Origin: a virus
Taxonomy: Duplodnaviria; Caudoviricetes
DNA length: 64,000 bases
Direction: 5' to 3' (one strand)
Virus record (IMG/VR): IMGVR_UViG_2738541308_000001
Span: 20,260 to 84,259 of that record
The notes under the pieces: model-generated
Databases searched by the model: none
The model's input: the letters and a program-made list of their open reading frames with translations, nothing else
Told to the model about the DNA's origin: nothing
Position numbers and translations under genes: made by a program
Shown: piece by piece, positions 6,303-41,141 of the stretch
Layout of the letters: each line of letters begins with the position of its first letter
How positions within the stretch are numbered: the stretch's first letter is position 1

Positions 6303-6331
6303 CTCACACTGTGGAGTTCTCAAGGATCATG
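6303..6331 (-). promoter_or_regulatory. boxA-like antitermination motif
   Basis: Minus strand CATGATCCTTGAGAACTCCACAGTGTGAG, near copy at 32478-32506; resembles actinobacterial rrn leader boxA. Confidence 0.6.
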
Positions 6332-6465
6332 GGGGAGCGGATTTCACCCGACCAGATTCGGTGTCCGCACCCCAGCTGAGACTGGGGGGACTTACGGCCT
6401 TGCCGGCGGGCTTTCGTTGCCGGCTTCCAGTGGCCTTGTCAGTGACTGTCACTCACTGGCATGAC

Positions 6466-6499
6466 CATAGTTTGCACTATGGGTGCATAGTCTGTCAAC
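6466..6499 (-). promoter_or_regulatory. Leftward promoter with CTATG-N4-CATAG operator between -35 and -10
   Basis: TTGACA-18nt-CAAACT on minus strand; 31/34 identical to 32680-32713. Confidence 0.7.
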
Positions 6500-6732
6500 A
6501 CTTGGGTTAGATCCCAGGTCAAGGGTGGTTTGTCATGCCCCCAGGTGGGAGCTAGGGGAGTGGCTACCCCCTGAGTGGTGGTCAGTATGGGCACTGCACT
6601 GGTGGCCCCCTGGTGGCCCCTGGGGGCTCAATTGCCCCTTGGGGTACCCAAGGGGGCAGGATGGCACTTTCTGGCCCCTTAAGGGCAAATAGGGGGCACT
6701 ATGACCAAATAGCCAGAATTAGCCCTGAGGAC

Positions 6733-6762
6733 TTGACACACTATGCCCCCATAGTGTTACCT
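6733..6762 (+). promoter_or_regulatory. Rightward promoter overlapped by palindromic operator ACACTATG-CCCC-CATAGTGT
   Basis: TTGACA at 6733, palindrome 6738-6757, AAGGAGG RBS downstream; -10 not clearly canonical. Confidence 0.6.
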
Positions 6763-6807
6763 CAGTGCATGAAACCAGCTGCCCCACAACACAAAGGAGG
6801 TGAACCA

Positions 6808-7092
6808 ATGACAATCAAACAACACCCCGAAAGCCGACACGCCCACGCGATCCAGGCCTACCAAGCGATCCGAGACCTCGCCGACGCGCGAGCCCAACTC
6901 GACAATCTCCGCGCCGACGAAGGCCCGAGGTACGAGGCCCAACTCGACGCCGTTGCCCGCGCCGAAATCGAACGCGCCCACTACGGCGACTATCCGGACA
7001 CTCACAACCCGTTCTGGAACGCCGCCGACAACCCGTTCGGCAACACCCCGCGTCGACCCGAATGGTACGAGAACGACCCGGTAGACGCCTGA
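6808..7092 (+). CDS. Hypothetical protein, first of rightward operon
   Basis: AAAGGAGGTG RBS. Confidence 0.75.
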   Translation: MTIKQHPESRHAHAIQAYQAIRDLADARAQLDNLRADEGPRYEAQLDAVARAEIERAHYGDYPDTHNPFWNAADNPFGNTPRRPEWYENDPVDA

Positions 7093-31009: not shown

Positions 31010-31762
31010 TTACCCGATGGCCTGCCTTCCGGCGCCGACGCGGGTGTTCCCTACGTCGGCACGGTCACCTGCAGCATGGCCGGCTCGGTAACCTTCGCCG
31101 CGGCCGACGGAGCGCCCGCGACCCTGGCCGATCATTCCGGCGTACTTCTTGTACATCGCCGCCTGCGCTCGATCGAAGTCGCTCTTGAGCATCAGGGACG
31201 CTCCGGTGCCGCCGTTCTCACGGTCGTACGTCGACGCCGCATTGTCCTCGCTCTCCTGGATACGAGAACCGATGCGGTCCGCGAACCCGATCATGAATTC
31301 CGCGCGGTGTTCGGCGGTGAGGCGGGCTGAATCCTTCGGATCCCGTCCTGCGAACGGATTCGCTGGAATAGCTTGCGTTGCAGATGAAAGCAGCTGCGGC
31401 ATCAGGAGTTGGATCAAGAACTTCACGCGCTCGAGATGACGGGACAGCCCGAAAATCTGCAACACATGCTCACCATGCAGTTGAACGGCGTCGCAATGCA
31501 GGGACTTGGATACGCGATTGACCAGATACATCTTCTCGTAGCCGAACCGGTCACCGGTGTAGGTGAACGTTACCGCCTTCATTGTGTCGCCATCCACGTT
31601 GCCGGAACCGGCAGAACCACGGGCCATTGCTTCGTCGATGCCGTACTTCGCCAGGAGTTCGAATGCCTTCTCGCGCAACGTATCGGCCTCGAGTGTACCT
31701 TCGACCGAATCCGCCTTTGCGAACAGACCCTTGATCCTGTTGAGCATCTTGTTGTCAACCAT
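31010..31762 (-). CDS. DUF2786 domain protein
   Basis: RIKGLFAKA...EA....KAFELLAKYGID; GY.AG..AG..ADV. Confidence 0.85.
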   Translation of the reverse strand: MVDNKMLNRIKGLFAKADSVEGTLEADTLREKAFELLAKYGIDEAMARGSAGSGNVDGDTMKAVTFTYTGDRFGYEKMYLVNRVSKSLHCDAVQLHGEHVLQIFGLSRHLERVKFLIQLLMPQLLSSATQAIPANPFAGRDPKDSARLTAEHRAEFMIGFADRIGSRIQESEDNAASTYDRENGGTGASLMLKSDFDRAQAAMYKKYAGMIGQGRGRSVGRGEGYRAGHAAGDRADVGNTRVGAGRQAIG

Positions 31763-31885
31763 TGTGCGTGTCCTAACCTTTCGAGACTGAGGGTGAATTC
31801 CGAACGTCAGGGTGGGCACCGGGGACGGGTGCCCACCCTTGCTCCGGCGAGTGCCAGCTCGCCGGAGCCCACTGTCGAACGATGG

Positions 31886-32407
31886 TCACTCTTCGATGAC
31901 TTCTTCTGCGGTGACTCCCGATTGGGGAGCGTCATCGCCGTCATCGTCGAGGTCGATGGTCTGCTGGCCGGCGTTCTTTCCGTCACCGATTGCCTTCTGC
32001 CGGCTCTTACGCTTCGGCTTTGGGGCCTCGATCGGATTGAACATCCATTCAGCGGTGTGATTGCCCAGGTAGTTGATCAGCAGATCAGAACTCTTGAAGT
32101 CGATCGCTGCGCCGTCGGCGCCGATCTTCTTCTTGAGGTACCCGGTTTGTTCTGCGATGCAGAACCATTCACCACCGACGTGTTCCCATACGAGTTGGAT
32201 TTCACGGGCCTTACCTTCGGGAGATCCGTCGGCTTTGACCTTGTGTGCGCGGACGGTGATCCGCGCAACCACCTCGTTGACCACGCTGTGTTCGACGGTG
32301 TAACTCCAGCCCATGAGGAGCATCGCTCCGAGCACGTTCGTGAAGTCGTCCGGAAGGGTCTCAGTCTTGAAAACCGGGACATACGCTTCGGTGGACTTGC
32401 TGGACAT
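31886..32407 (-). CDS. Hypothetical protein
   Basis: GAAAGGGG RBS. Confidence 0.75.
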   Translation of the reverse strand: MSSKSTEAYVPVFKTETLPDDFTNVLGAMLLMGWSYTVEHSVVNEVVARITVRAHKVKADGSPEGKAREIQLVWEHVGGEWFCIAEQTGYLKKKIGADGAAIDFKSSDLLINYLGNHTAEWMFNPIEAPKPKRKSRQKAIGDGKNAGQQTIDLDDDGDDAPQSGVTAEEVIEE

Positions 32408-32477
32408 AATGGTCCCCTTTCCGAGGGATCATCGGCAGCAACACCATTGGGCATTGCTGCCTTGTGGTTGTGGGTGT

Positions 32478-32506
32478 CTCACGCTATTGAGTTCTCAAAG
32501 ATCATG
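32478..32506 (-). promoter_or_regulatory. boxA-like antitermination motif
   Basis: Minus strand CATGATCTTTGAGAACTCAATAGCGTGAG. Confidence 0.65.
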
Positions 32507-32679
32507 TGCTCGAGGGTTTCTCCCCTGGCCTATTCAGGGTTCCCAAGAGCCGGCATTCAGACTTGTGACGATATGAAGTTGTTGGGACAGACCAACACTG
32601 AGGTTTTCCAGACTCTGAGCTGGTATCCAGATTGCTTGCCAGCTGGCCTGTGTTGCTGGCCCCTACTGGCTTGCTGATG

Positions 32680-32713
32680 CATAGTTTGCCCTATGGGGGC
32701 ATAATCTGTCAAC
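32680..32713 (-). promoter_or_regulatory. Leftward promoter/operator, near copy of 6466-6499
   Basis: TTGACA-18nt-CAAACT with CTATG-N4-CATAA operator. Confidence 0.7.
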
Positions 32714-32948
32714 CCTGCAGGTGGGAGGCTATTTCTGGGGCAATTTATGGGCCTTGTTGACCTCTCAGGGCTGTGAACTGCCCCTTGGGCTGCACTGCAC
32801 CACTGGCCAACCTCAGGGATGGGTGGTCCTGGCCCTGAGATCAATTCTCAGAGCCTGTGAGTCACTATGGGTACATAGTGCCCAGAATGGCCCAAGGATT
32901 GCCCAGGGCCTCCCTCAGGGGCATTAATTGCAATAGTTGTAACAGAGC

Positions 32949-32978
32949 TTGCACTATTGGGGCATAGTGACCTAATGT
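32949..32978 (+). promoter_or_regulatory. Rightward promoter with operator CACTATT-GGGG-CATAGTG
   Basis: TTGCAC-18nt-TAATGT; additional operator at 32863-32880. Confidence 0.65.
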
Positions 32979-33128
32979 CAGGGGCACACCAGCTAGTCAA
33001 GCTGGCCCAGGGGGCAAGTGCCCCAGGGGAACATCCCAAACCAGTGAGGTCACTCATGGGAGAACATCACCCAAATGTCACCACAGCCCAGCCGGCCCAA
33101 CACCTCCCCAGCGAGACAGGGGAGTGAG

Positions 33129-33320
33129 ATGAAAAAGATCAGAGTCATCTGGGAAGAACACAGCACACACCAGCAGGAGTTCGACGTTCCGGACGACTTC
33201 GCAGTCGAACCACACGAAGAGGGATACGACCTCAGCAACGCGCTCGCCAGCCTCGTAGACGAGCGCGGCGACGGATTCCTGGGACTCGAACGCACCGTAA
33301 TCGACGTGACCGAGCTATGA
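33129..33320 (+). CDS. Small acidic hypothetical protein
   Basis: AGGGGAG RBS. Confidence 0.7.
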   Translation: MKKIRVIWEEHSTHQQEFDVPDDFAVEPHEEGYDLSNALASLVDERGDGFLGLERTVIDVTEL

Positions 33321-33631
33321 GCGACCAAACGACAGTCGCCGTCATCGAATACACCGATCACCACGGTGAAGTCAGATACTTCGACGACGGAGTCTGGGCT
33401 GACATCGAACTACCGAGCATCCGTGCGCACGCCGGCAGATACCTGTTCACCAACGAATCTCTCACCTGCACCGGCGACCACAAAAACGGAAGTTTCACCG
33501 TCGACTTCGGTGGCGGAGAAACGATTTGGTACGCATGGCGACTGCTGACCCTCGACGCACAGGACGCCGCGAACACCAGAATCATCGGTTGCGATTCCGA
33601 CGCGACTGTGACTGAACGGAGCACCACATGA
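33317..33631 (+). CDS. Hypothetical protein
   Basis: Coupled ORF. Confidence 0.65.
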   Translation: MSDQTTVAVIEYTDHHGEVRYFDDGVWADIELPSIRAHAGRYLFTNESLTCTGDHKNGSFTVDFGGGETIWYAWRLLTLDAQDAANTRIIGCDSDATVTERSTT

Positions 33632-34395
33632 TCGAACTCGACGGAATCACCCCGTCGAAGCAGATGCTCGACGACCTCGCAGCGGAAGGTCGACCCGTCA
33701 TCCTCAACTTCTCCCGCGGCAAAGACTCAGTCGCCGTCTGGATCGAACTCGAACGACGAAACATGCAGGTCATCCCGATCCACAAGTCGATCGTGCCGGG
33801 ACTGAAGTTCGTCGAGGACGATCTCAAACGCTACGAAGACTATTTTCAAACACATATCGTCGACCTGCCGGCAGATGCGTTCTACCGCATGCTCAACAAC
33901 CTCACCTTCCAGCCGCCCGAACGCTGCGCGATCATCGAAGCTGCAGGATTCCCGTCGCCGACACGCGAAGAGTGGGACATGCTCATGCGCGACAACTTCG
34001 CCGAGGACGACACCTGGATCCTCGACGGCGTGCGGGCAACAGACTCCGCCCAAAGGCGAATGGCGATCATGCGCCACGGCCCGATCAAACACCGCACCCG
34101 ACGCCAGTCCGTCATCTGGGACTGGGGCATCGCAGACGTGCGACGGGCGATCAAGGACCGCGGCATCACACTCGGCCCCGACTACGAGTGGTTCGGCAAA
34201 TACCTCGCCGGAAAAGTGAACCCCAGACACAGAGGCGGGCTCGACGGCAACGGTCGGTCCTTCGACGGAATTCGCTACGACTTCCTCAAGCCGATCCGCG
34301 ACCACGCCCCCGACGACTACCAGCGAATCCTGCACTGGTTCCCGCTGGCTGAACTCGAACTGATGAGAATGGACATGATCAATGGCTCTGTCTGA
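33628..34395 (+). CDS. PAPS reductase-like / PP-loop ATPase
   Basis: LNFSRGKDS PP-loop, GVRATDS..RR, IWDW. Confidence 0.85.
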   Translation: MIELDGITPSKQMLDDLAAEGRPVILNFSRGKDSVAVWIELERRNMQVIPIHKSIVPGLKFVEDDLKRYEDYFQTHIVDLPADAFYRMLNNLTFQPPERCAIIEAAGFPSPTREEWDMLMRDNFAEDDTWILDGVRATDSAQRRMAIMRHGPIKHRTRRQSVIWDWGIADVRRAIKDRGITLGPDYEWFGKYLAGKVNPRHRGGLDGNGRSFDGIRYDFLKPIRDHAPDDYQRILHWFPLAELELMRMDMINGSV

Positions 34396-34762: not shown

Positions 34763-34891
34763 CCACCGACTTCCCCACCCGGGCAACCGGGTTGCGGGTT
34801 GACCAAAAGCCCACCAGCAGCTGAAAGCCCCGAGTCGCCGAAGTGTCTCGGGGCTTTCTGCTGCCCGGATCACAGGAAAGGAGGGGTGACC

Positions 34892-35014
34892 ATGCGTAAT
34901 GCAGCCCGTCGTCTCGGCCAGCGCATCTCCGGTGTTTTCAACCGAATCACTGGCCGTAACCGCAACCGCACCGCCGCAAGCCCGGCAGCCGGTTCTCTCA
35001 GCGGTTCGACCTAA
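34892..35014 (+). CDS. 40-aa Arg-rich peptide
   Basis: Strong RBS AAAGGAGGGG; MRNAARRLGQRISGVFNRITGRNRNRTAASPAAGSLSGST. Confidence 0.7.
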   Translation: MRNAARRLGQRISGVFNRITGRNRNRTAASPAAGSLSGST

Positions 35015-35114
35015 GAGGTCAGGCGTTGGTCGCGTGCTTGAAATGTGCACCGACCGACGTCACAACCCGTCCCCACAACTGAACAATCGAGCCGACTCTG
35101 ACGGGAGGGCCAAC

Positions 35115-35465
35115 ATGAGCAGCCCGGAGCTTTCCGTAGTTTCCCTGCGCCCCAACCACAAACCACCTGAGCCCACTTCATCGGACGCGCCACCGGAGAC
35201 ACCAGAGTGGCTGACCGACATCGGCAAACAGACGTGGGCACGGTTGGCCCCCTTGTTCAATCTCACGCCCGCTGACATCGACGAATTCGCCGCCTACTGC
35301 GAGGCGATCGCCGAATATCAGGAATCGACCGTCATCATCGCCGAAGCTGGACTGCTCATCATCGACCCTGCGTCGGGCATGCCGATTCCGAACCCGATTC
35401 AGGCCGTTCGTGATCGAGCGGACCGCAAACTCGCATTTTGGGCCGGCCGCTTTCGAGGCGCGTGA
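35115..35465 (+). CDS. P27-family terminase small subunit-like protein
   Basis: PEWL...GKQTWARL, D...FAAYCEA, PNP. Confidence 0.75.
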   Translation: MSSPELSVVSLRPNHKPPEPTSSDAPPETPEWLTDIGKQTWARLAPLFNLTPADIDEFAAYCEAIAEYQESTVIIAEAGLLIIDPASGMPIPNPIQAVRDRADRKLAFWAGRFRGA

Positions 35466-35468
35466 TAC

Positions 35469-36107
35469 ATGGCTCCGCTTCCACCCGCGTCTCGATCGCG
35501 GACAACTCGCCCGAAGAAGGGCACGAAGAAGCCGGACCTCACACAGGCTGAACGCGACAAGATCGCTGCGTTGCATGCACAGGGCAAGGGACGCAACGAG
35601 ATAGCGCGCGAGATCGGCCGGTCCGCGTACTCGGTCACCAAGGTCGCCAAGGAACTCGGGCTTTCATTCGACGAAGCTGCGACGGTCGAAGCGACAGCCG
35701 CTCGCGTCGCGAAGATGAAGGCCCGCCGAGTCGACCTCGCCGAGCAACTTCTCGACGACGTCGTCAAGCTCCGTGAGCGCCTGTGGTCCCCACACAACTA
35801 CTACGAACGCGGCCAGGACGCCATGATCCCGGTGACCTTGCCGCTGCCCCCGCTGCGCGACGCCCGCGACGGCTACGCCGCACTGCAGATCGCGCTTAAA
35901 GGCCACATGGATCTCATTGCTGGCTCTACCGATTCGTCGGTCGAGGACAAGCGGTCCGTGCTCGCCAATCTCATCGATCGCATCAAGACGGTCGTCGACG
36001 AGGACAAGAAGAACGGTGCGCCGCCGCCGGACACATCAGTGCCCGTCAACGACGAAGCCGGTACCGCCGCAGAGCAGAAGGAGGTGGCGGGTGACGACGT
36101 TCAATGA
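35469..36107 (+). CDS. HTH protein, probable terminase small subunit
   Basis: LHAQGKGRNEIAREIGRS; directly upstream of TerL. Confidence 0.75.
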   Translation: MAPLPPASRSRTTRPKKGTKKPDLTQAERDKIAALHAQGKGRNEIAREIGRSAYSVTKVAKELGLSFDEAATVEATAARVAKMKARRVDLAEQLLDDVVKLRERLWSPHNYYERGQDAMIPVTLPLPPLRDARDGYAALQIALKGHMDLIAGSTDSSVEDKRSVLANLIDRIKTVVDEDKKNGAPPPDTSVPVNDEAGTAAEQKEVAGDDVQ

Positions 36108-37374
36108 CCTGCCACTGTCGCGGAAGCAGCTCTACTCGATAGCCGAGGCCGAAGCCCGCATCAACATCTGGGAAGGCGCAATCCGGTCCGGAAAGACCTT
36201 CGGCTCGATGATGCGGTGGCTGATGTTCTTGTCGAACCCGCCAGGGGGCGGACAGTTCGTCATGGTCGGGCGTACCCGCGAATCCCTCGCTCGCAACGTT
36301 ATCTCACCGATGCAGGATCCCGACATCTTCGGGGAATTCGCCGACACCGTCCACTACGTCACAGGCGCGCCGTCTGCGACGATCCTGGGTCGCCGCGTCT
36401 ACATGCTCGGTGCGTCGGACGCGAAGGCGGAGAAGTCCCTTCGAGGGCTCACCGTTGCCGGTGCCTACGCCGACGAAATCACCGTTATCCGGTCGGACTT
36501 CTTCCATCAGCTACTCGGTCGTATGTCTGTCACCGGCGCGAAGTTGTTCGGAACGACGAACCCCGACAACCCGATGCACTGGCTCAAGGCCGAGTATCTC
36601 GACCGACTGCATGAGCTTCCAGACTGGCGCAGTTGGCATTTCACGCTCGACGACAACCCTGCATTGTCCGAGGACTACAAGAACTCGATCAAGCGCGAGT
36701 ACACAGGCCTCTGGTACCGCCGCTTCATCCTCGGTCACTGGGTCGCAGCGGACGGCGCCGTCTACGACATGTGGGAGCCGTCCAAGCACGTCGTGCGGTG
36801 GCAGGACCTACCGCAGATGGTGGAACTGTTCGGCGTCGGAGTGGATTACGGCACCACGAATCCCACCGTGGCGTTGTTGCTCGGCGTGGGTGCCGACGGC
36901 GTGCTTTACCTGATCGACGAATGGTCGTACACGCCACGATCGGACGCCACCCGATGGACCGACGCGCAACTTTCCCGCGGCCTGCGTGACTGGCTCGCGG
37001 AAGGTCACCTGCCGTACCCGACGCGAATGCCTCCCGGGCCGGTCATCGTCGACCCCGCTGCGGCGTCGTTCCGGGTTCAGCTCCTCCAGGACGAACTCCC
37101 GACGTATGCGGCCGAAAACGATGTGCTGTATGGGATTCGGACCATCGCAACGTTGCTCTCGACTGGAAAGCTGAAGGTCACCGATCGCTGCAAGACCTTC
37201 ATGACCGAGGTCGCCGGTTACTCGTGGGACACGCAAGCAACATCCGAGGGCTACGACCAGCCCATTAAGTCTGCGGATCACGCGCTCGACGCTGCCCGCT
37301 ACGCCATCGTCACCACCGAAAAGCGGTGGCGGCGCTACGTCGATGTGAACGGAGGCGAGTATGCCGCTTCCTGA
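36091..37374 (+). CDS. terL: Terminase large subunit
   Basis: GAIRSGKT Walker A, YADE Walker B, TTNP, GVDYG, DHALDAARY. Confidence 0.95.
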   Translation: MTTFNDLPLSRKQLYSIAEAEARINIWEGAIRSGKTFGSMMRWLMFLSNPPGGGQFVMVGRTRESLARNVISPMQDPDIFGEFADTVHYVTGAPSATILGRRVYMLGASDAKAEKSLRGLTVAGAYADEITVIRSDFFHQLLGRMSVTGAKLFGTTNPDNPMHWLKAEYLDRLHELPDWRSWHFTLDDNPALSEDYKNSIKREYTGLWYRRFILGHWVAADGAVYDMWEPSKHVVRWQDLPQMVELFGVGVDYGTTNPTVALLLGVGADGVLYLIDEWSYTPRSDATRWTDAQLSRGLRDWLAEGHLPYPTRMPPGPVIVDPAAASFRVQLLQDELPTYAAENDVLYGIRTIATLLSTGKLKVTDRCKTFMTEVAGYSWDTQATSEGYDQPIKSADHALDAARYAIVTTEKRWRRYVDVNGGEYAAS

Positions 37375-41057: not shown

Positions 41058-41129
41058 TGGTGCGTAGCTCACCCGGAGAGCAACCGGTTCCTGACCGGCG
41101 AGTCGCAGGTTCGACCCCTGCCGCATCAA
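41058..41129 (+). tRNA. tRNA-Arg(CCT)-like, non-canonical
   Basis: Acceptor TGGTGCG/CGCATCA, D-stem GCTC/GAGC, anticodon loop TTCCTGA, T-arm GCAGG-TTCGACC-CCTGC; no encoded CCA. Confidence 0.7.
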
Positions 41130-41141
41130 CGTCCCCCGTAC

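Follow-up and report, generated by a model that had tools for sequence, protein, structure and literature searches.

A stretch of 522 bp without a single CG dinucleotide (positions 32571-33092, bounded by the CGs at 32569-32570 and 33093-33094) occupies most of a 721-bp intergenic region between two divergent operons in the IMG/VR record IMGVR_UViG_2738541308_000001, which represents a provirus of the Caudoviricetes. This stretch is named island 2 here, and positions refer, unless stated otherwise, to the window, i.e. the 64,000 nucleotides analysed (20,260 to 84,259 of the record). A second such stretch in the window, island 1 (6423-6827, 405 bp), appears to be a paralogous module. Comparison with related phages makes it very probable that CpG is kept out by selection at this co-regulated divergent control region. 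The absence of CG had been reported in an earlier note on this DNA, made from the sequence alone, and a CpG scan reproduced its coordinates exactly.

The window has a GC content of 62% and contains 7573 CGs, one per 8.5 bp, with an observed/expected ratio (O/E) of 1.24. In island 2, where the GC content is 55%, none was observed as against 39.3 expected, and the probability of finding none under the local composition was approximately 2e-18. The longest CG gaps of the window measured 524 and 407 bp, the third 70 bp; in the whole 84,259-bp provirus record the same two gaps (island 2 and island 1) were followed by one of 98 bp. This third-longest gap of the record (record positions 1652-1750) lies in the intergenic region beside an HTH_3 repressor-like gene. 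When the whole record was scanned for low CG content in 200-bp sliding windows with 10-bp steps, places within 300 bp of each other being merged, six or fewer CGs were found at four places. Three of these lay inside the two islands, with 0 CG each, and the fourth was a CI/Cro-like intergenic region (record position 1541, 3 CGs).

A low-complexity artefact, which would have spoken against the earlier note, was looked for in both islands. Tandem Repeats Finder (TRF) reported a 12-bp unit in 2 copies as the sole repeat of island 2 and units of 10-11 bp in 2-3 copies in island 1, and a repeat search gave merely two-copy families of 13-24 nt. A low-complexity or tandem-repeat origin was thereby ruled out for both islands of the window; an island of this kind was found only in the Gordonia phage VanLee. 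The ratio of the largest gap to the mean CG spacing was 62 for island 2 and 48 for island 1, as against 17 in a control set of 237 unrelated IMG/VR loci (2.0 Mb), obtained as chance matches in scans for two palindromes; these scans returned chance matches only and no further islands. In a 400-kb sample of a Nocardia chromosome containing 54,310 CGs the longest CG gap was 88 bp. A prophage in the sampled genome had a gap of 319 bp, whereas no chromosomal gap reached 100 bp. In this comparison of chromosome and prophage the CG-free gap was specific to phage DNA.

The evidence for selection came from the comparison of islands between relatives. Locus L004 encodes a PAPS-reductase-like protein 99% identical to that encoded beside island 2 and has a CG gap of 525 bp. 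The flanks of the two loci were 98.6-99.5% identical (also given as 97.6-99.5%) and the adjoining intergenic part (32408-32570) 98.8%, whereas the islands were only 91.7% identical, with 43 substitutions and 3 indel columns. None of these substitutions made a CG, as against 18% of random ones (P approximately 2e-4). The same pattern was observed in an alignment of 12 Nocardia provirus loci, compared in 50-column blocks by mean pairwise identity. The identity of their islands was 53-74%, as against 83-93% in most flanking blocks (the exceptions, two far-left blocks and one at the right edge of the island, had 59-67%), and their CG-containing left intergenic part was 91-93% identical. At least 307 substitutions had occurred in 265 columns, and island length was held at 252-258 bp. 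Altogether the 12 islands contained 4 CGs, as against 59.7 ± 4.8 in 1000 within-column shuffles, no shuffle being as low; the kinship of the sequences inflates this test, though not fifteenfold. In 52 pairs of adjacent columns both C and G occurred, never in one sequence, and the same test in the flanks showed no change. In contigs from soil runs, 46 differences were counted in the 821-nt island piece as against 0-5 in the flanking pieces. Because the island changes fastest in its locus and yet stays CG-free, both between our phage and L004 and among the 12 Nocardia proviruses, the CG dinucleotide itself appears to be selected against. These alignments argue for purifying selection on the dinucleotide and not on the sequence, with length also kept, and they support the view of the earlier note that CG loss is maintained independently: it is kept up by selection and was not inherited through one duplication.

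In the pooled islands (5.5 kb) the O/E of CG was 0.01 and that of GC 0.93; no other word fell below 0.42, and CA/TG reached 1.53. The most depleted words after CG were TCTT/AAGA (0.42), GAAC/GTTC (0.51) and GGA/TCC (0.60). Methylation-driven CpG decay, for which a neutral O/E of about 0.2 is expected, was ruled out by the island value, by the CGs kept in adjacent non-coding DNA and by the O/E at codon position 3-1, which was 1.17, i.e. synonymous boundaries were not depleted. The islands might also be a by-product or of mutational origin, as arrays of short CG-free binding motifs with slippage turnover or as sites of local CG decay, with CG as such unselected. The island of VanLee indeed consists of GGCCACCAG repeated in tandem 22 times, words of the related CACCAG/CTGGTG kind are also found in the phages Morgana and Cafasso and in island 1, and the missing CG is replaced disproportionately by CA/TG. 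However, the window islands and the Nocardia islands are non-repetitive, the pooled O/E of 0.01 is well under any known decay equilibrium, and neither the synonymous boundaries nor the neighbouring non-coding DNA have lost their CGs. The avoidance of CG by point substitutions in the aligned Nocardia islands (4 observed against 60 expected) largely refutes this explanation, which we consider improbable.

The depleted words bear on a further possibility. Promoters of extracytoplasmic function (ECF) sigma factors typically carry GGAAC at -35 and CGT at -10, and the islands might avoid cryptic promoters of this type, so that only repressor-controlled housekeeping promoters fire. The position of GAAC/GTTC and GGA/TCC among the most depleted CG-less words of the pooled islands would agree with this, but all four CGN/NCG classes are missing, not CGT/ACG alone, and GAAC is merely halved. 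There is accordingly little to be expected from ECF avoidance as the explanation.

The palindrome CACTATG-N4-CATAGTG, with up to 2 mismatches, had four matches in the window as against 0.01 expected, two in each island and none outside. By eye, the operators lie in the spacers of outward-facing putative promoters of the type TTGACA/TTGCAC-N17-19, and TTGACA hexamers adjoin operators. In island 1 the operators are at 6475-6492 and 6739-6756, with TTGACA at 6493-6498 (minus strand) and 6733-6738 (plus strand). In island 2 the predicted leftward promoter/operator is a 34-bp block on the minus strand (32680-32713) that is identical in 31 of 34 positions to 6466-6499 of island 1 and contains a minus-strand TTGACA (32707-32712) and a degenerate operator. 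The predicted rightward promoter, also recognized by eye, is TTGCAC-N18-TAATGT (32949-32978, plus strand), and its spacer holds the operator CACTATTGGGGCATAGTG (32952-32969). An operator-like perfect palindrome, CACTATGGGTACATAGTG, is located at 32863-32880, and a palindrome CCCTGAG-N7-CTCAGAG at 32833-32853 resembles the inverted repeat around AGAATGG in the Nocardia islands. In the Nocardia alignment five of the nine pairs of this inverted repeat were changed on both sides in 3-4 of the 12 sequences. With divergent flanking genes and palindromic operators in excess of chance, the region shows two features of a repressor-controlled divergent promoter region, the promoters themselves being predicted.

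All four operator matches of the window fall within the two islands, which argues for their co-regulation and agrees with the earlier view of the islands as one regulated class. Islands 1 and 2 share the 34-bp block, the operators and, outside the islands, a 21-bp element; the remainder aligns at chance level. A recent duplication of one island, the other finding that would have spoken against the earlier note, was ruled out in this alignment, in which the islands do not align over their length. The statement that there was no similarity apart from short motifs was correct for the interiors only: it had missed the 34-bp block, the 21-bp element and the spacing of the block/operator copies, which is 263 bp in island 2 and 264 bp in island 1. 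By their sequence, the two islands are co-regulated paralogous modules with interiors diverged beyond alignment.

This constant spacing is also what DNA mechanics would predict, if the island were an arm of constant length in a repressor-promoter complex that is looped or wrapped, and CG steps were barred from it for their effect on DNA shape or flexibility. The 12 Nocardia islands, which keep 252-258 bp while their sequence changes, would agree with such an arm. GG/GC/CC are phased at 10.0 bp in our islands and in Morgana or at 11.25-11.5 bp in the Nocardia proviruses, the best period (4-30 bp searched) was within 9.5-11.75 bp in 8 of 13 islands, and GGGGCA recurs at 40-42-bp steps. However, the periodicity reached p ≤ 0.05 against shuffles in only 5 of the 13 islands, and related islands are not independent. 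Moreover, no known property separates the CG step from CA/TG and TA, which are abundant in the islands, equally stable GC steps are not avoided (O/E 0.93), and the CG-free zone extends 40-110 bp past the outer putative promoters. A mechanical cause is thus unlikely.

The 21-bp element common to both modules, CACGCTATTGAGTTCTCAAAG (also given as CACRCTRTKGAGTTCTCAARG), resembles a sequence of ribosomal RNA (rrn) leaders. It has exactly two matches in the window, at 32480-32500 on the minus strand and at 6305-6325, and lies to the left of each island at a distance of 71 bp (island 2) or 98 bp (island 1). In both leftward operons it is part of the leader and lies in the transcribed sense. When up to 3 mismatches were allowed, it was found in 334 of 401 Mycobacteriales genomes, a tally that includes the genomes G153, G222 and G236, flagged as unpublished; there were 1-10 copies, often at contig ends. 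In three of three loci checked it was located in the 16S rRNA leader, in the same transcribed sense as in the leftward leader of the phage, about 180 bp upstream of the 16S rRNA gene in two loci and, judged by locus layout, about 190-210 bp in the third. A conserved motif of mycobacterial rrn leaders, CL2, codes for a putative BoxA (PMC10218544), and the 21-bp element may correspond to it. The element is probably an rrn-type antitermination signal, or a mimic of one, on the leftward early transcript, and such a signal would place the leftward promoter inside the island. A scan of IMG/VR for this rrn-like element returned 57 loci, with an island alongside only in three already known Nocardia proviruses, so that the element is no predictor of islands.

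The terminase of the phage is closest to those of the Gordonia phages VanLee, Morgana, Aleemily, ObLaDi and Cafasso (60-62% identity), and the nearest named PAPS-like protein is that of Rhodococcus rhodochrous (73%). The host is probably Rhodococcus-like. Relatives were collected with an alignment of 26 PAPS-like proteins, which gave 48 loci from one genome per species and 79 loci from IMG/VR. The loci of the Nocardia type (PAPS-like match of 54-62%; L005-L015, L040, L045, L048 and, from IMG/VR, L052-L057) each had one CG gap, of 203-393 bp, that ended about 40 bp before the PAPS-like gene. A gap was present in all 11 Nocardia-titled genome loci with a match of 60-62% and also in L015 (54%). 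The prophage of Gordonia sinesedis (L039) had a CG gap of 231 bp. The remaining loci had ordinary gaps, of at most 131 bp where the GC content was 60% or higher and at most 249 bp in AT-richer loci with a mean CG spacing of 12-35 bp. Locus L004 is a 3825-bp contig of a genome titled Streptomyces sp. and may represent a contaminant or a free phage, not a Streptomyces prophage.

Orientation at the island was divergent in 7 of 7 gene-called relative loci. Of the Gordonia phages, Morgana carries 2 CGs within a zone of 675 bp (82166-82841), inside a divergent gap of 1 kb, and has a further CG gap of 179 bp elsewhere, whereas Cafasso and Aleemily have 389+206 bp and 466+206 bp free of CG, each split by one CG. 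The low-CG zones of these three phages thus measure 595-675 bp and contain 1-2 CGs. Within the islands of the Gordonia cluster (L421, 845-1517; Morgana, 82166-82841) CGs occur solely in the 4-bp centre of operator palindromes of the ACACTATG-nCGn-CTAGAGTGT type, which fits a tolerance of CG where a protein is already bound. Palindromes of the CACTATG kind are also present in Morgana and Cafasso. In VanLee the GGCCACCAG array forms a 340-bp CG gap between the divergent genes, and the annotation of a membrane protein, gp163, over this array (L003, 32424-32726; record 82424-82726) probably does not represent a gene. CG-free islands homologous to each other, 203-675 bp in length, are found in the same divergent region of Nocardia proviruses, the G. 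sinesedis prophage and Gordonia phages, and the CG-free state is conserved across at least three host genera. Islands were absent from Streptomyces phage Keanu, Corynebacterium phage PSonyx and Cutibacterium phage CA1NRNZ. A phage collection gave no match to the locus by megablast or to the island by blastn, IMG/VR scans with the single PAPS-like protein and with the 173-aa protein of the leftward operon gave no relatives, and an IMG/VR scan for the 34-bp block gave 0 matches.

The gene surroundings of island 2 were as described in the earlier note, as judged from the list of open reading frames (ORFs) and from family matches. To the left, on the minus strand, a 163-bp conserved intergenic part with 5 CGs (32408-32570), the putative leader, precedes a 173-aa ORF (31886-32407; G+C content at third codon positions 0.72; no Pfam or PHROG match) as the first gene and a 269-aa DUF2786 protein (31010-31819; PF10979, E=1.7e-10; phrog_421, E=1e-35) as the second gene of the leftward operon. 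The rightward genes, on the plus strand, border on the CG-free part and begin with a 63-aa ORF (33129-33320; ATG at 33129 and GGGAG 9 nt upstream; no family match). A 104-aa ORF lies between it and the gene for the PAPS-reductase-like PP-loop protein (33628-34395, 255 aa; phrog_2302, E=2e-20). An FSRGKDS block was invariant in the alignment of 26 homologues of this protein, and its homologues in Gordonia phages bear the name PAPS reductase-like. The small (34899-35465; PF05119, phrog_83) and large (35917-37374; PF03237, phrog_2) terminase subunits follow. In three RNA libraries from soil, contigs over 34787-35246, around the upstream part of the small terminase gene, reached a word depth of 22-328x as against about 5x elsewhere, and one such contig starts at 34791 beside adapter sequence. 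This peak may reflect an abundant RNA or a conserved piece common to other organisms. A tRNA-Arg (anticodon CCT) is located among the head genes (41058-41130). To the left of the window the record continues for 20 kb, which form the prophage early region, with genes for the HTH_3 repressor-like protein, YqaJ, RecT, an exonuclease, a C5 cytosine methyltransferase and DnaB. Since the HTH_3 repressor-like gene of the lysogeny switch (record G000:C1:1184-2229), with its divergent neighbour, is situated there, outside the window, the islands are not the lysogeny switch.

Our tentative explanation is the following. The phage would be a temperate siphovirus of Mycobacteriales, and its divergent region of 721 bp, with island 2 at the core, would serve early control. 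Back-to-back promoters of the TTGACA-N17-19 type, each with a palindromic operator CACTATG-N4-CATAGTG in its spacer, would feed, leftward, a leader with a copy of the host rrn-leader element and, rightward, the operon of the PAPS-reductase-like and packaging genes. This promoter platform would be hidden from an agent that recognizes CpG on duplex DNA, namely a host or phage protein that binds, nucleates on or modifies CpG and would otherwise occlude or mark the promoters. Initiation would be blocked, and polymerase already elongating through the CG-rich genes would not be affected; CG would be tolerated only where the repressor already sits. To escape from such a protein as the reason for the CG-free platform we give somewhat less than an even chance. 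The more specific proposal that Mycobacteriales or the phage lineage own a protein reading unmodified CpG which silences, marks or cuts promoter DNA, the islands being CpG-free 'blind spots', is possible but doubtful.

Several observations weigh against parts of this picture. Concerning selection, one relative from run X2 has, among the differences listed, an A>G change at 32917 that would make a CG unless a neighbouring base differs too, and 93 further differences beyond those listed; and in the Gordonia cluster the divergence of the island was no greater than that of the flanks. About 30 prophages of the Pseudonocardiales type have the same PAPS-like gene and no island within 6 kb of it. Concerning the promoters, a consensus promoter scan did not call those predicted by eye and reported a single different weak site per region instead. 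Contigs from RNA libraries had equal low depth over island and flanks, where DNA carry-over is possible, and are uninformative on transcription. Concerning the agent, we know of no CpG-reading protein in these hosts or phages, and none was found among the candidates tested. A C5 cytosine methylase was not found in the records searched for Morgana, VanLee and two Nocardia proviruses (0 of 4, those proviruses being only 60-68% complete), the genome of G. sinesedis gave no C5 methylase match either, and an Lsr2-like gene (PF11774) was present in 0 of 5 phage records.

Two candidate agents were rejected on these grounds. The phage itself encodes a C5 cytosine DNA methyltransferase of 576 aa (record G000:C1:12112-13842), which lies 6.4-8.1 kb before the start of the window, between the RecT/exonuclease genes and DnaB; a sequence search of the Protein Data Bank (PDB) gave no clue to its specificity. 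Because no such enzyme was found in the four related records, all of which carry islands, or in G. sinesedis, a shared C5 methylase was rejected as the agent that reads CG. The island was likewise rejected as a target of an Lsr2-type silencer, on account of its GC content, the lack of an AT-rich tract and the result for PF11774.

The transcript rather than the duplex could be the constrained molecule, if long leaders or a non-coding RNA were made from the island and had to be free of CG, for instance so as not to be recognized by a ribonuclease or a sensor. In agreement with this, the CG-free zone continues for 40-110 nt past the putative starts and, at island 1, through codons 1-7 of the next gene, the inverted repeat of the Nocardia islands stays paired through double changes, with G-U pairs on the plus strand, and contigs of the RNA libraries span the island. 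These contigs cannot show transcription, however, and if the outward promoters are placed correctly most of the island is upstream of both and would not be transcribed. Moreover, CG is abundant in all mRNAs and in the more distal part of the leader. A known structured RNA was rejected as well: Rfam identified only the tRNA across the window and no family at its gathering score in the island, where the best match had E=3.2. A constraint at the level of RNA seems quite improbable.

Still less probable is an avoidance of restriction, according to which recognition sites rich in GC mostly contain CG and a CG-free region could be neither cut nor methylated in any host. The hosts are GC-rich, the phage carries its own C5 methylase, and in VanLee and Morgana the region would be situated close to one end of the genome as packaged, 2-5 kb from the right end. 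Thousands of CGs in the flanking genes would nevertheless leave the genome unprotected, and the CG-less palindromes GGTACC, CTGCAG, GGCC and CAGCTG are frequent in the islands. The genome-wide loss of palindromes typical of restriction-site avoidance was not observed: the O/E of CG in the genome is 1.24, and CG-less palindromes are present in the islands.

The region has points in common with several known systems. Like the divergent operator/promoter regions of lambda-type phages with their nut/boxA leaders, it has divergent operons, repeated palindromic operators over the spacers of putative promoters and, in the transcribed sense of the leader, an element copied here from the host rrn leader. 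In contrast to them, it is 200-675 bp long, more than operators need, has a fast-evolving interior and is not a CI/Cro switch; we know of no lambda-type divergent region that excludes a dinucleotide. As in restriction-site avoidance by phages, selection removes a short word from phage DNA, but here the effect is local, the word is a dinucleotide and not a site of 4-8 bp, and the rest of the genome is enriched in it. Xenogeneic silencers of the Lsr2/CgpS type target actinobacterial prophage DNA, and a local drop in GC at putative prophage promoters (55% as against 62%) is found here too; the islands are not AT-rich, however, and their peculiarity is CG, not G+C. Vertebrate genomes are depleted of CpG and have CpG islands, and CpG-poor RNA viruses escape ZAP. 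Common to those cases and the present one are the reading of CpG as a unit and a CpG content of regulatory regions unlike that of the genome at large. In the phage the sign is inverted, with CpG-free promoter regions in a CpG-rich genome, there is no signature of methylation decay, and the setting is bacteria and phages. Literature searches retrieved no description of CG-free regions in phages or bacteria, although an earlier report may exist, most subscription journals lying outside their coverage; a word search of the VanLee announcement text did not find 'repeat', 'intergenic' or 'PAPS'. A local exclusion of a dinucleotide in a fast-evolving regulatory region, kept across host genera, fits no system known to us.

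Such a local and almost complete exclusion of CG is the clear mark of selection through a CpG-reading agent, and no CpG reader is known to us in bacteria or their phages. This mark is sharp, occurs in at least three host genera and is found in phage isolates amenable to laboratory culture, so that the agent can be searched for directly. Searching for CG-free windows would also be an inexpensive way to locate early control regions in prophage sequences. A silencer or modifier in the role of the agent would reveal a hitherto unrecognized level of phage-host conflict or nucleoid organisation in bacteria among which are important pathogens and strains used in industry, and if a CpG reader is indeed responsible, the islands would represent a bacterial counterpart, with inverted sign, of the CpG-based marking of promoters in vertebrates.

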